From Microbotryum violaceum (Eukaryota), in NCBI GenBank assembly GCA_001244265.2, contig CDLV01000009.1, positions 1,922,001 to 1,986,000 of the forward strand: a stretch of DNA of 64,000 bases, written 5' to 3'. Position numbers and translations under genes: made by a program. Shown piece after piece: positions 18,403-64,000 of this stretch. Within the stretch, counting starts at the first letter, position 1. The number at the start of each line of letters is the position of its first letter. The notes under the pieces are model-generated. The model was not told the origin of the DNA and did no database searches. It saw nothing but the letters and a program-made list of their open reading frames with translations.

Positions 18403-21007
18403 ATGCGCCACCTCTTTTCACATACTCCACACACTTGGTTCAAGCCACCTCCGCCTGGCAACGCGCCTGATTATTCAACCGCTCCGCGCTTGCCGGCCAA
18501 CGCTGGAACTGCGTTCGATTGCGCCGCACGTTTGGGAGGATTGAGATGGGGCGAATACTCTTCTCCTGGCGACAGGGTCGTCGACTCGTTTTTTAATCTA
18601 CTCGACTTACACCCATCGCTGCTCGAGCTCTTCGAAGCCAAGATCGCCGTCATTGAGGCGATGGGTTCGACCAGGGCTGGCCGCAGGGCTCGGATTACCG
18701 AAGACGAGGTCCAAAACGCATTTGCCATTCTCGCTGACGGCCTAGGAGGTGCAACGGGCGAGCTGCTCGACCACTATGCATCGATCACCGAAGACAACTT
18801 TACGCCCACGACCAGTGGCTACTGGGTAACGCCAAATAGCGTCCAAGGGCTGTCATACCGAACGCGCGGCGATGCCATCCTGGAAATTGGCCGTGGGGTT
18901 GACGACTCAGCAGTCGTTGTCTCGTCAATCGCGATCGAGTTTAAGCGGGGACCCGTGCATCACACGGCGACCAAAGGGCCCCCTCCATCCGGAACCAACT
19001 CGGCGATTCCAGTGCTCGATCACGCGTCGCCGGTGCCGCTGCAGAATTTGGAAACGCAAGTCTCGGTCGGTCCCGACGCCATAGCCACGAAGGTAAGAAA
19101 TACGATTTTTATTCGAATCGGCCTCGGAACTTCGATCTGATCTAACTATGTTCGCGTGCCTTTTGCAGGCCATCATTCAGTGCGCTTCCCAAGCCTGCCG
19201 GTTCTTTCTCCTGTTCTCGGTGCCGTTTTTTCAGATCGGTGAACTGGGTATGTCGCACCTTCGGCTTCGACCTGTGCATGGTGTAACGGTCACGCAGAGT
19301 CACTGATGCATGCAACTGCGCAATTGTGGGTCCTTCATACACAGTTGAACACCAACCATCCGACGCTGCAAAGGCAAGCGATGCGGCAGGTTCGACAGCG
19401 TCAGCTTCCACCTCGACGGCACCAATGCCTGGCACGCCCCACTCATCGACCCCCACCCCCCCTACCACGACCGAGGCGAGCGCCCCACCCGCTGTTCGAA
19501 GACAGTATAGCCTGCTCCTTCAAGAGTTGGTGCGATGGGTCGAGCGCTATCCAGGCACCTCGCTCCAGCCCGCCGAGACCCTCGGCGTTGACTTACCGGC
19601 GCGGTCGTTCATCGTGTCTTTCATTGCTCTGGCGTTCACAGCCGTGATGAAGGTGCCCGAGCCGGGGAAAGATCGCGTCAAAGAATTGCTCGACGCCAAC
19701 CCGAACACCTCGAATCAGTCGCGACCTCGCGCCGTCTCGGACTCGGACCGTGAAGATCCCTCCTACGAGCCGGCAAACAAAGCACCGAAAACGTCGGCCA
19801 TTGGCCCCGGTACTCGCTCCTCAAAGCGACTGGCAGGCGACCCCCGCTCACTCAAGCCAAGGGTTCGAATCGGCCCGTCACCCCGCCCGTCTCCGAAGAG
19901 GCCGGGTCCGACCTCTCCTCTGGCGCGCTCACTCCTGAGGCTCTCTGCTTCTCGTCCCCTCCTGCGTCGACGGACCGGAGTCCGACGACATCGCCGGCTT
20001 CCGGCTCGGTTCCTTCATCGAAATCGATCACAATCGCTCAAGATCGCAATTTCGTGATCCAGGCGAGCTTGTCGAATGCGCACTGGTCGATGATGGTGCG
20101 TCACACATTCTGACCATGCGGCTCCTGTGCCAGCACTCGTGGCTCCGCTCACCGAACGTGTCCTCTTGTGCTCTTTGCAGTCGTACACGGGCACGAGCCT
20201 CGTCAATCTGGTCGAAATTGACTTTGATATCGTCTCCTCGGATCGTTCCGACTCGCCCCTTTCGTCCCTTCTGTCGTCGAACCCTTCCCCAGCCACCGAC
20301 TTCATCCGGAGCCTCCATTTGTCTGATGCCGTTTTGCAGTGGTTGACGGAAGACCCCAAGGACGAGCTCGAAGACGATCGGATCCCGCTGGAACTGTTGG
20401 GTTACTTCGAGGCCGCGGCGGATCTTCGCCTGGAGAAGCAGGTTGGGACGGGAAGTACTGCCGACGGGTATCTTGCGAACGTGGTGCGCGCCAACCCACG
20501 TTGGTCCTCCCCGGCCAATCGCGAGGTCCCCCTTGTTGGCCACCTTGCTCCGAACACGAGGTACTTTCTCAAGCTCGTGACATGTAACCATGTTGGCTCG
20601 GTCGTCCGGGAGACGCTGTTTTATCAGCACGTCTTTCCCCACCTTCCCGATGGGCTCCAAAAACATCTGCCACAATACCACGGCACGTACCGCGGTATCA
20701 ACGGCAATGGGTACGCTATGGTGCTTGAGAATGTGGGGACTCATATGAATTACTCCGAGTTTTATGAACGGTCTGGTCAATGGCAGTAAGTCTTCGGGCC
20801 GTGGCAAGTTGTCGACGGCTCAGCGTGATGCTGACACCCCTGTTCTTTCACTTCGTCCTCGCCATGTGCAGGGAGATCGAGAAGGCTTTCGTTGAGCTTG
20901 GAATTGTTCACAACGATATCCGCCAGGGGAACGTATTGGTTCGACCCGACGATGGGGGCTTTTGCTTCGTCGACTGGGGACGATCTTATCTCAAACTTCG
21001 AGCGTGA
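18403..21007 (+). CDS. K1: PD-(D/E)XK nuclease-like plus protein-kinase-fold gene (5 exons; one homopolymer frameshift near 19845)
   Basis: N-terminal RGDAIL...IAIEFKR. C-terminal GTGSTA, FLKLV, RETLFY, MVLENVG, HNDIRQGN and VDWG. GT-AG introns at about 19093, 19248, 20096 and 20786. Confidence 0.8.
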
Positions 21008-21728
21008 ACCTCCCTCTCTCGCTTTCCCTCTACTCTATTCTCTCTCTCTCTCTCTCTCTTTCGGCAATGCTCGTGATCTCTTCACTGCCTCTCCCTTTCT
21101 CTCGGCAACGCTCGTAAGATCTTCACTTCCTCCTCTAAACCTGTATCTCCTCTACTGTTGCTTTATATACATACGTACTTCCCTCAGTTTTGTCTGCAAT
21201 GCGCAATGCTCACAACTTTGTTCTGTCCAGCTTCATAGCTGGACTGCGGGCCCCAGAGCCAAACGGGCGACAGCTTCTTACCGGTTCGGCTAGGACCATA
21301 ACAAGCGATGACTCGGAGGCTCCTACAGACCACCTGATCTCCATTCAGCAGTCATGGCTAACTTCTGATAGTTTTCTTCGAAAAGTCCGAGATTCGGATT
21401 CGAACTGTTATTCTCATCAGCTTTCTGCCCTATAAAACTCAGGCTACTCATAGCGAATTGCTTCTTCAGGTTGTGGAAGGCCAAGGCCTCGGAAGCGCAA
21501 CTTGAAGCACATGCTGAGTTTAAGTTGTCTGAAAATGCAACAAGTGCACTGTCATGCAGCTTCGACGCACATAGTCCACTCTCCATCCGTCTCACTTCAA
21601 GTTTATAATCCATTGCTCACAGCGCAGAGCACGGACACAGTCTGGCAGGATTAGCGCTTTAGCGTCAATGTCGATCAGTCCGAGCTCGAGTGCTAGTAGC
21701 AAGTGTCGGCGGCGGCGGTCATTATATA

Positions 21729-62243: not shown

Positions 62244-62705
62244 AGAAGCAATTCGCTATGAGTAGCCTGAGTTTTATAGGGCAGGAAGCTGATGAGAATA
62301 ACAGTTCGAATCCGAATCTCGGACTTTTCGAAGAAAACTATCAGAAGTTAGCCATGACTGCTGAATGGAGATCAGGTGGTCTGTAGGAGCCTCAACGCTT
62401 GCTACGGTCCCCGCCAAACGGATAGAGGCTGTTGCCCGTTTGGCTCTGGGGGCCGGAGTCGAGCTACGAAGCTGACGAGAACACTATATTGAGCATTGCG
62501 TATTGCAGACGAAACTGAGGGAAGTGCATATGATACAAAAAGCTATAGTAGAGGAGAGACAGGTCTAGAAGAGTGAGTGAAGATATTACGAGCACTGCCG
62601 AGAGAAAGAGAGAGAAGAAGTAAAGAGATCACGAGCATTGCCGAGAGAGAGAGAGAAGAGAGGAGAGGAGAGAAAGGACGAGAAGAAACAGCGAGAGAGG
62701 GAGGT

Positions 62706-64000
62706 TCACGCTCGAAGTTTGAGATAAGATCGTCCCCAGTCGACGAAGCAAAAGCCCCCATCGTCGGGTCGAACCAATACGTTCCCCTGGCGGATATCGT
62801 TGTGAACAATTCCAAGCTCAACGAAAGCCTTCTCGATCTCCCTGCACATGGCGAGGACGAAGTGAAAGAACAGGGGTGTCAGCATCACGCTGAGCCGTCG
62901 ACAACTTGCCGCGGCCCGAAGACTTACTGCCATTGACCAGACCGTTCATAAAACTCGGAGTAATTCATATGAGTCCCCACATTCTCAAGCACCATAGCGT
63001 ACCCATTGCCGTTGATACCGCGGTACGTGCCGTGGTATTGTGGCAGATGTTTTTGGAGCCCGTCGGGAAGGTGGGGAAAGACGTGCTGATAAAACAGCGT
63101 CTCCCGGACGACCGAGCCAACATAGTTACATGTCACGAGCTTGAGAAAGTACCTCGTGTTCGGAGCAGGGTGGCCAACAAGGGGGACCTCGCGATTGGCC
63201 GGGGAGGACCAACGTGGGTTGACGCGCACCACGTTCGCAAGATACCCGTCGGCAGTACTTCCCGTCCCAACCTGCTTCTCCAGGCGAAGATCCGCCGCGG
63301 CCTCGAAGTAACCCAACAGTTCCAGCGGGATCCGATCGTCTTCGAGCTCGTCCTTAGGGTCTTCCGTCAACCACTGCAAAACGGCATCAGACAAATGGAG
63401 GCTCCGGATGAAGTCGGTGGCTGGGGAAGGGTTCGACGACAGAAGGGACGAAAGGGGCGAGTCGGAACGATCCGAGGAGACGATATCAAAGTCGATTTCG
63501 ACCAGATTGACGCGGCTCGTGCCCGTGTACGACTGCAAAGAGCACAAGAGGACACGTTCGGTGAGCGGAGCCACGAGTGCTGGCACAGGAGCCGCATGGT
63601 CAGAATGTGTGACGCACCATCATCGACCAGTGCGCATTCGACAAGCTCGCCTGGATCACGAAATTGCGATCGTGAGCGATTGTGATCGATTTCGATGAAG
63701 GAACCGAGCCGGAAGCCGGCGATGTCGTCGGACTCCGGTCCGTCGACGCAGGAGGGGACGAGAAGCAGAGAGCCTCAGGAGTGAGCGCGCCAGAGAGGTC
63801 GGACCCGGCCTCTTCGGAGACGGGCGGGGTGACGGGCCGATTCGAACCCTTGGCTTGAGTGGGCGGGGGGTCGCCTGCCAGTCGCCTTGAGGAGCGAGTA
63901 CCGGGGCCAATGGCCGACGTTTTCGGTGCTTTGTTTGCCGGCTCGTAGGAGGGATCTTCACGGTCCGAGTCCGAGACGGCGCGAGGTCGCGACTGATTCG
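62706..64000 (-). CDS. K5: nuclease-kinase gene copy (3' half; runs off the window)
   Basis: Kinase exons near-identical to K1-K4. Confidence 0.8.

Follow-up and report, generated by a model that had tools for sequence, protein, structure and literature searches.

Five copies of a five-exon gene

The DNA considered here, referred to below as the window, is a stretch of 64,000 nucleotides from Microbotryum violaceum (contig CDLV01000009.1, positions 1,922,001 to 1,986,000 of the forward strand). It carries five copies of a gene whose product has an N-terminal domain with a nuclease-like motif, a low-complexity linker and a C-terminal kinase-like domain. When the window is compared with itself, a unit of approximately 3.3 kb is found five times (copies A to E), with the gene on the + strand in two and on the − strand in three (Table 1). 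The pairwise DNA identity of the complete copies A–D is 94.4–97.5% over 3.1–3.5 kb, and that of the cut copy E with the others is 95.5–96.8% over 1.8–2.3 kb. A tblastn search with four diverged family members placed 80 of 80 high-scoring segment pairs inside these five copies and revealed no further remnants in the window. A preliminary description of this DNA had reported near-identical, locally amplified copies of a five-exon gene, and in this it agrees with the self-comparison, with the annotated protein P0001 and with the splicing seen in run X16. Complete genes they are not, however, as copy E is cut by the window end in exon 3 and A–D are all frameshifted.

The gene model is best followed in copy C, which, read on the − strand, has five exons separated by GT..AG introns, so that four introns lie in the coding sequence. 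Exactly this structure is present in P0001, a protein of 763 amino acids (aa) from M. silenes-dioicae that is the best match to exon 4 and ends in ...DWGRSYLKLRA. The intact annotated proteins closest to the window copies have 761–763 aa, and all are from Microbotryum. The contigs of run X16, which are 90–95% like the window, skip from 47314 to 47412, from 47489 to 47566 and from 45786 to 45876, and the first two of these joints end in CT..AC on the + strand, which is GT..AG on the strand of the gene. Since these contigs lack introns 1, 2 and 4, the three introns are confirmed, and a relative transcribes and splices the gene. No splice joint is reported at the stop codon in the X16 contigs. 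Run X15 was also considered as RNA and set aside, because its contigs retain the introns and thus resemble DNA.

The 5′ end of copy A differs from that of the other copies, to which it is similar only from 18401. Its encoded N-terminus, MRVTTMRHLF..., is also annotated in the M. silenes-dioicae protein P0024 (361 aa), and this 5′-replaced form is thus common to more than one assembly. The encoded N-terminus of the family is not hydrophobic, as judged from the translations without a signal-peptide program, which is in line with the absence of an obvious signal peptide noted previously.

Reading frames were judged on the exon columns of the five-way copy alignment, under the five-exon model. In each of the complete copies A–D, one or two homopolymer runs are a single base short, and none of these copies is open; there are no nonsense codons in the proper frame in any window copy, and the visible part of copy E is in frame. 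Copy A has one frameshift, with five C at 19841–19845 compared with six in the other copies. In copy B, the first frameshift lies in exon 1, just past IEFKRGPVHHTAAKG, where four C are found at 31187–31190 and five elsewhere, and the second is a run of six C at 31663–31668, compared with seven in A and all intact relatives. One frameshift is present in copy C (six C on the gene strand at 47198–47203, seven in A and the intact relatives). Copy D has two, the first at 52184–52189 (six C, again seven in A and the intact relatives) and the second in exon 5, just 5′ of DWG, with four G at 50688–50691 and five elsewhere. At the homopolymer 47198–47203, the extra base is found in 243.4 of 243.4 depth in run X1, 12.8 of 12.8 in X15 and 92.2 of 92.2 in X16. 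The private deletions of B and D are in none of the contigs of the runs, which drop rare variants. Once the frames are corrected (with X at the breaks), the translations are 97.6–98.9% identical to intact proteins of 761–763 aa from other assemblies, the best intact matches being P0032 for D (753/761), P0030 for C (747/762) and P0029 for both A (739/755) and B (739/757). In effect, none of A–D is open, but intact relatives are annotated and, as X16 shows, a relative expresses the gene. The deletions in the window may be real decay or residual assembly error.

The kinase-like and N-terminal domains

The motifs GTGSTA, K (in YFLK), E (in RET), HNDIRQGN and DWG are present in every window copy. 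Across the family, the beta-3 lysine is retained in 30 of 31 members, and the alpha-C glutamate, H732-x-D734...N739 and D753-W-G in 32 of 32 each. In a Pfam scan of 20 members, APH was matched by 13 (best E-value, E, 1.8e-5), RIO1 by nine, Choline_kinase by five and ABC1 by four, with P0001 just under the gathering score for APH. A profile search of PDB sequences returned 133 sequences at E ≤ 10, kinases only, with positions 703–747 aligned to CK2 alpha from the catalytic loop through DWG (E 0.009). Among the NCBIfam models run on 25 members, Bud32 was matched in four and Kdo kinase was also matched; the PADLOC models of PD-T4-6, which we take to be a kinase-type defence protein, matched 8 of 25. 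By ESM features, residues 520–763 score 0.98–0.95 to clusters of small fungal kinases of the Kdo/APH/Bud32/FTA2 type, mostly from Basidiomycota. The assignment of the C-terminal third as a minimal eukaryotic-like (ELK) kinase, nearest to Bud32, Kdo and APH, is well supported by these comparisons.

With the kinases Bud32/PRPK, Kdo, RIO and APH (PF06293, PF01636, PF01163), this domain shares the H-x-D-x4-N loop, the DxG metal-binding motif, the beta-3 lysine, the alpha-C glutamate and a small size, but the Microbotryum protein adds a large N-terminal region that they do not have. Kinases of the Bud32/Kdo/RIO/APH type keep a reduced C-lobe. The stop codon comes 10 codons past DWG in each of the five copies, and likewise in those full-length members that were aligned. 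Because the chain ends there, the activation segment and the helices of the C-lobe are missing, and what was previously called a complete kinase has the full motif set but not the whole domain.

The N-terminal domain (N-domain) bears the motif GD-x20-IEFK, that is, D167-x21-E189-x-K191 in the numbering of P0001, rather than the GD-x16-IEFK first given for it. D167 is retained in 36 of 41 members, E189 in 35 of 41, K191 in 34 of 40 and Q244, encoded in exon 2, in 34 of 35; the four residues are thus kept at 85–97% across paralogs that are only 55–60% identical. The distance from D to K is 24 residues and that from K to Q is 53. An AlphaFold2 model of P0015, a natural member consisting of the N-domain only, was built from a 25-row alignment and has a mean predicted local distance difference test score (pLDDT) of 59.9, with residues 35–165 at 74–85. 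It shows three helices and then three strands, the elements nearest the motif being helix 83–115 and strands 127–132, 144–150 and 154–161; the aspartate opens the second strand, and ExK lies in the third strand, after the long helix. This predicted helix-strand-strand-strand order would be the first half of a PD-(D/E)XK core, of which the hydrophobic stretches in exon 2 would be helix 2 and strand 4. Residues 1–60 are modelled at pLDDT <50. By ESM features, residues 40–275 have their closest counterparts in unnamed ascomycete clusters (0.94, with 202 features in common). A cluster in which 76% of the members carry PF27653 SPOK2_N follows at rank 19 (0.89, 178 shared features), and this is a lead only, as scores below 0.9 are leads and not evidence in the calibration of this comparison. 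A PD-(D/E)XK nuclease fold for the N-domain seems just on the probable side.

Between the two domains, the low-complexity linker contains the hydrophobic helix LPARSFIVSFIALAFTAVM (residues 350–368), whose Kyte-Doolittle mean of 1.79 over 19 residues exceeds the usual transmembrane threshold. Speculatively, this helix could stand in for the hydrophobic core helix missing from the truncated kinase.

Kinship, divergence and possible role of the family

All 14 of 14 protein matches to exon 4 are named Microbotryum, as are 18 of 18 matches at E ≤ 10 to a profile of 20 members and 13 of 13 matches to a profile of the N-domain; eight matches were obtained when exon 1 was run exhaustively by phmmer against 1.84 billion representatives. 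All matches that bear a name come from this genus, the species being M. silenes-dioicae, M. saponariae, M. lychnidis-dioicae and M. intermedium. No relatives outside Microbotryum were found by phmmer, profile or word-index searches, the last of which may miss distant relatives. At the level of sequence similarity, the gene family is shown to be restricted to this genus. Fifty family proteins were collected, 24 of them of ≥740 aa, so that there are at least 24 full-length members in public annotations. The closest subfamily has seven full-length members, six of which lie on one 321-kb contig, and local clusters of intact copies thus exist in relatives. No published description of the family was found: the locus tags MVLG_06380, MVLG_06247 and MVLG_07277 are without papers, although supplementary tables might list it, and the family goes unmentioned in the accessible part of the M. 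lychnidis-dioicae genome paper.

Between copies, the ratio of nonsynonymous to synonymous divergence (dN/dS) is 0.4–0.85 overall, and introns differ by 0–2%. The N-domain is three to five times more diverged than the rest of the gene, silent sites included. In seven close full-length paralogs, 40 of the 68 variable sites fall in residues 51–200, with a peak at 91–150; the mean pairwise amino-acid difference in this patch is 0.17–0.26, compared with ≤0.1 in every other 30-residue bin. Because dS is also raised in the N-domain, positive selection alone accounts less well for the hypervariable patch than does a shuffling of old haplotypes. Blocks such as KLRSV/TPNSV and ATSLTSDGCMP/AMGSTRARRRA recur in differing combinations, and such mosaics point to gene conversion among old haplotypes of this helical patch. 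Hypermutation of the kind caused by repeat-induced point mutation was considered and rejected, as A–D show 122 transitions and 61 transversions, with 17 of the 122 transitions in TCG/CGA and no strong signature.

The layout of the protein recalls that of the Spok proteins, whose length is similar to the 761–763 aa found here, and that of certain Crinkler-type (CR) effectors. Spok3 is composed of a coiled-coil repeat, a domain of unknown function, a PD-(D/E)XK domain, a Cys/His cluster and an ELK-like kinase; the PD-(D/E)XK domain is needed for killing and the kinase (~539–700, with D667) for resistance (PMC6660238, PMC9972908), which are the roles that the preliminary description had given. 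In the CR proteins, a restriction endonuclease (REase) domain joined to a kinase accounts for roughly a sixth of the C-termini, and the kinase has been proposed to regulate the nuclease (Zhang et al. 2016, summarised in PMC5289972). The domain order of the Microbotryum protein is indeed that of Spok3 (PMC6660238) and of the CR REase-kinase class (PMC5289972), as previously suggested.

As in Spok1–4 of Podospora (Vogan et al. 2019; Urquhart et al. 2022), a single polypeptide contains a helical region, D...(D/E)xK, a disordered linker and a short ELK-type kinase. The Spok3 motif spans 219–240 and its QxxxY lies at 294–298, which gives D–K and K–Q spacings of 21 and 54 (PMC6660238), compared with 24 and 53 here. 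Both families are multicopy and near-identical, with frameshifted members, gene conversion and the kinase as the constrained part; Spok paralogs have dN/dS of 0.66–0.98, and frameshifts are frequent in the clade II Spok homologs (PMC6660238). By contrast, the Microbotryum family has no detectable sequence similarity to Spok and occurs in a basidiomycete genus instead of the Ascomycota, has four introns in the coding sequence where the Spok intron is described in the 5′ untranslated region (PMC6660238), and lacks the Cys/His cluster, QxxxY and the N-terminal coiled-coil repeat array. The cluster C-x3-C-x13-C-x5-H-x7-H is found in 0 of 24 full-length members by a relaxed regular expression, the cysteines of P0001 being at 16, 49, 103, 245, 250, 468, 652 and 750. 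No QxxxY occurs at the Spok position, where Q244 has no Y at +4; the expression matches only at residue 158, upstream of D167, in 8 of 24 members. As for the N-terminal repeat, no tandem repeat is detected by the program TRF in the copy C coding sequence, coiled-coil propensity not having been computed. The Spok-type PD-(D/E)XK motif is present at the motif level only.

These comparisons bear on whether the family is a true, very diverged Podospora Spok homolog and, in Microbotryum, a spore killer (meiotic driver) consisting of a single gene. The shared domain order, the D–K and K–Q spacings near those of Spok3, the short ELK-type kinase, the multicopy and frameshift-prone state reminiscent of clade II and the ESM lead to the SPOK2_N cluster would all fit such descent, which is nevertheless unlikely given that no sequence or profile match lies outside Microbotryum, that the Cys cluster is absent and QxxxY misplaced, that the introns differ from that of Spok and that the ESM score is at the level of a lead. 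In addition, the text of the Spok paper names Ascomycota only, with 0 occurrences of "Basidiomycota" (PMC6660238).

The CR REase-kinase class is alike in that a putative REase-like module is followed by a protein-kinase-like domain, but the Microbotryum family differs from CR effectors in that it has neither a header domain nor its motifs, gives no sign of being secreted and shows no link to them in sequence. A Crinkler-type effector delivered into the host plant would suit a plant pathogen and the share of REase-kinase C-termini among CR proteins (PMC5289972); it is a very improbable identity for a protein whose N-terminus is not hydrophobic and in whose family 0 of 24 full-length members contain LxLFLAK or HVLVxxP, the motifs of the header. 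No sequence link to either Spok or CR proteins was found, all matches in the searches being from Microbotryum. The family has a Spok-like or CR-like domain order and could at most function in a similar way, and membership in either is not shown.

The interpretation tentatively preferred here, which is plausible yet falls short of probable, is that of a Microbotryum-only family with a minimal kinase, amplified segmentally (see below), in which the N-domain would be a PD-(D/E)XK enzyme controlled by the kinase and the whole a conflict-type toxin/antidote gene. The N-terminal module (D167, E189-x-K191, Q244) would then be a phosphodiesterase of the PD-(D/E)XK type acting on nucleic acid. Restraint or redirection of this putative nuclease would fall to the kinase carried by the same polypeptide, as proposed for Spok and the REase-kinase Crinkler C-termini, and the family would behave as a conflict-type gene (a toxin with its cis-antidote), quick to multiply and to decay. 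Loss is never seen for the kinase motifs but does occur at times in the triad; this may fit toxin/antidote logic, as weak evidence, as may the clustering of variable sites in residues 51–200 and the dN/dS between copies. A selfish toxin/antidote role is possible but unproven.

Several observations weigh against this interpretation. No hidden Markov model of Pfam, PADLOC or NCBIfam matches the N-domain, and Foldseek against the PDB gives 0 matches at E ≤ 0.001 for the full-length or the N-domain model, so that the restriction-endonuclease fold proposed at the outset finds no backing there. The best Foldseek match has E 0.13 and a template modelling score of ≤0.18, which is chance level (the mean pLDDT of the full-length model is 39.5); the restriction enzyme BbvCI, at rank 37 with E 1.6, was likewise disregarded as a chance-level match. 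Past ExK, the domain is modelled at pLDDT <50, and the two models differ there, one giving strands and the other a helix. The putative D/E/K triad is not invariant, being altered in 3 of 24 full-length members (P0002, P0003 and P0006). The kinase lacks everything after the position of DFG and so may not be active alone. The linker helix could be a membrane anchor, which would be unfitting for a nuclear nuclease. Values of dS are 0.05–0.11 in the N-domain and 0.006–0.03 in the C-terminal third. All four complete copies are frameshifted and, if this is real, the cluster is not under selection to stay open. In this regard, the six-C state of copy C is also found in run X2 (0 of 15.7 depth with the extra base), which in part carries the deletion of copy A at the second homopolymer run (4.5 of 8.92 depth). 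At least these two deletion states are thus present in independent data of one organism, and three other organisms are open.

The main rival explanation is an ordinary lineage-specific family of atypical kinases, in which the N-terminal region is non-catalytic, with a regulatory or binding function, and D...ExK is coincidental; its copies would be the product of passive segmental duplication in transposon-rich, poorly recombining DNA and would now be decaying. This is a real possibility, if a somewhat doubtful one. Database support exists for the kinase only, the D/E/K residues vary in some members, and, judging by the ESM clusters, Basidiomycota often have small kinases of this type as stand-alone proteins; the frameshifts of the window copies, their dN/dS and the copia-type element and other repeats nearby would also be expected from such an origin. 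Less easily accommodated are the retention of D, E, K and Q across distant paralogs, the position of these residues exactly on the predicted strand-2/strand-3 hairpin, the full-length open copies in relatives (at least 24) and the domain order, which mirrors that of the Spok and CR REase-kinase proteins.

The toxin/antidote reading can be taken further, to a first Spok-type single-gene killer/antidote outside Ascomycota, in which a PD-(D/E)XK toxin would be checked by its own minimal kinase and the hypervariable patch would set specificity. In this extended form it is unlikely to be correct. In Microbotryum, haplo-lethal, mating-type-linked sporidial death has long been reported; if the killer/antidote reading were true, some of this death could be drive and not sheltered load. 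To our knowledge, Spok genes have so far been described in ascomycetes only, and we know of no solution to the question of how one protein both kills and protects. A second, unrelated-looking family with the Spok layout would be an independent test case for nuclease-plus-kinase logic, and would provide a candidate selfish element in organisms that serve as a model for how mating-type chromosomes evolve. Should the N-domain prove not to be a nuclease, the family represents a genus-specific expansion of an unusually truncated kinase, of local interest only.

Origin and surroundings of the copies

The amplification is a nested segmental duplication, both tandem and inverted, and not transposition; the ends of the copies are unequal, and terminal repeats are absent. 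On the upstream side, similarity starts at 18401, 30290, 48580 and 53481 for A, B, C and D; downstream, it ends at 21706 in A, 34431 and beyond in B, 45060 in C and 49929 in D. No inverted repeats bracketing any copy were found by the window self-comparison and repeat analysis. The flank at 21691–21872, downstream of A, matches 48603–48785, upstream of C, suggesting the copying of an ancestral tandem that was D-C-like. A long 3′ flank is common to B and E and is split in B by a copia-type insertion, being unbroken in E (61165–61643) and in two pieces in B (34170–34431 and 38594–38817). Within the inserted fragment, the open reading frame (ORF) at 35360–37429 matches the integrase family rve and SH3_retrovirus, and that at 37483–38391 matches Pol_BBD.

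Such flanks and unequal ends, together with four spliceosomal introns that have been kept, make it quite improbable that an unrecognised DNA transposon has the gene as its cargo or machinery and spread it by transposition. In favor of this alternative, PD-(D/E)XK nucleases occur in mobile elements, repeats and the copia element lie nearby, and family members are found on many chromosomes or contigs in M. saponariae and M. silenes-dioicae, as judged from record names.

Table 1. Features of the window discussed in the text (positions in the window; exons in the order of transcription)
Feature	Position	Strand	Remarks
Copy A repeat	18401-21706	gene +	from self-comparison
Copy B repeat	30290-34431	gene +	from self-comparison
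Copy C repeat	45060-48580	gene −	from self-comparison
Copy D repeat	49929-53481	gene −	from self-comparison
Copy E repeat	61165-64000	gene −	runs into window end
Copy A coding	18388-21007	+	exons 18388-19092, 19169-19247, 19345-20095, 20181-20785, 20872-21007
Copy B coding	30584-33211	+	exons 30584-31299, 31376-31454, 31552-32299, 32385-32989, 33076-33211
Copy C coding	45652-48286	−	exons 48286-47567, 47490-47412, 47314-46564, 46478-45874, 45787-45652
Copy D coding	50639-53280	−	exons 53280-52561, 52476-52398, 52300-51550, 51464-50860, 50773-50639
Copy E coding, cut inside exon 3	62706-64000	−	64000-63618 (part of exon 3), 63532-62928 (exon 4), 62841-62706 (exon 5)
Exon 1 of copy C (240 aa)	47567-48286	−	three predicted helices, then three strands with D (GDA) and ExK (IEFK)
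Hypervariable patch, residues 91-150	47837-48016	−	predicted helices upstream of the D...ExK strands
Exon 2 of copy C	47412-47490	−	AIIQCASQ..RFFLLFSVPFFQIGEL; Q244 and hydrophobic stretches
Hydrophobic helix LPARSFIVSFIALAFTAVM, residues 350-368	47011-47067	−	conserved, inside low-complexity linker; same place in other copies
Kinase-like domain, exons 4-5 of copy C	45652-46478	−	GTGSTADG G-loop, K648, E661, HNDIRQGN, DWG
GA/CT-rich repeat tract	45518-45649		abuts stop codon of copy C on 3′ side; other copies likewise
Copia-type long terminal repeat (LTR) retroelement fragment	34432-38593	−	inserted in 3′ flank of copy B

Other repeats are found around the copies. A segment of approximately 1.14 kb (48786–49929) separates D from C, and the junction after A is without it. 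Both of its ends are rich in TAGATATCT-like inverted repeats, for instance, the arms 48784–48814 and 49812–49842, which are 81% complementary, and the segment is possibly a short DNA transposon of the non-autonomous kind. At 79% identity, a repeat of some 260 bp occurs at the window start (384–641) and in the 3′ flanks of B (33680–33939) and E (61984–62243).

Between A and B, nine ORFs of 136–256 aa lie at 22000–30100 on the − strand and could represent either a multi-exon gene or a large element that has decayed. In a Pfam scan of the inter-copy ORFs (22–30, 40–42 and 57–60 kb), no family was matched except for a sub-cut-off Ulp1 (28675–29331, E 0.0014). An ordinary host gene, for a fatty-acid desaturase, adjoins the repeat cluster at 14050–16302 (+). 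It matches DUF3474 (E 4.6e-7) and then FA_desaturase (E 4.6e-19) in two same-frame ORFs, and the one stop codon between them probably lies in an intron.

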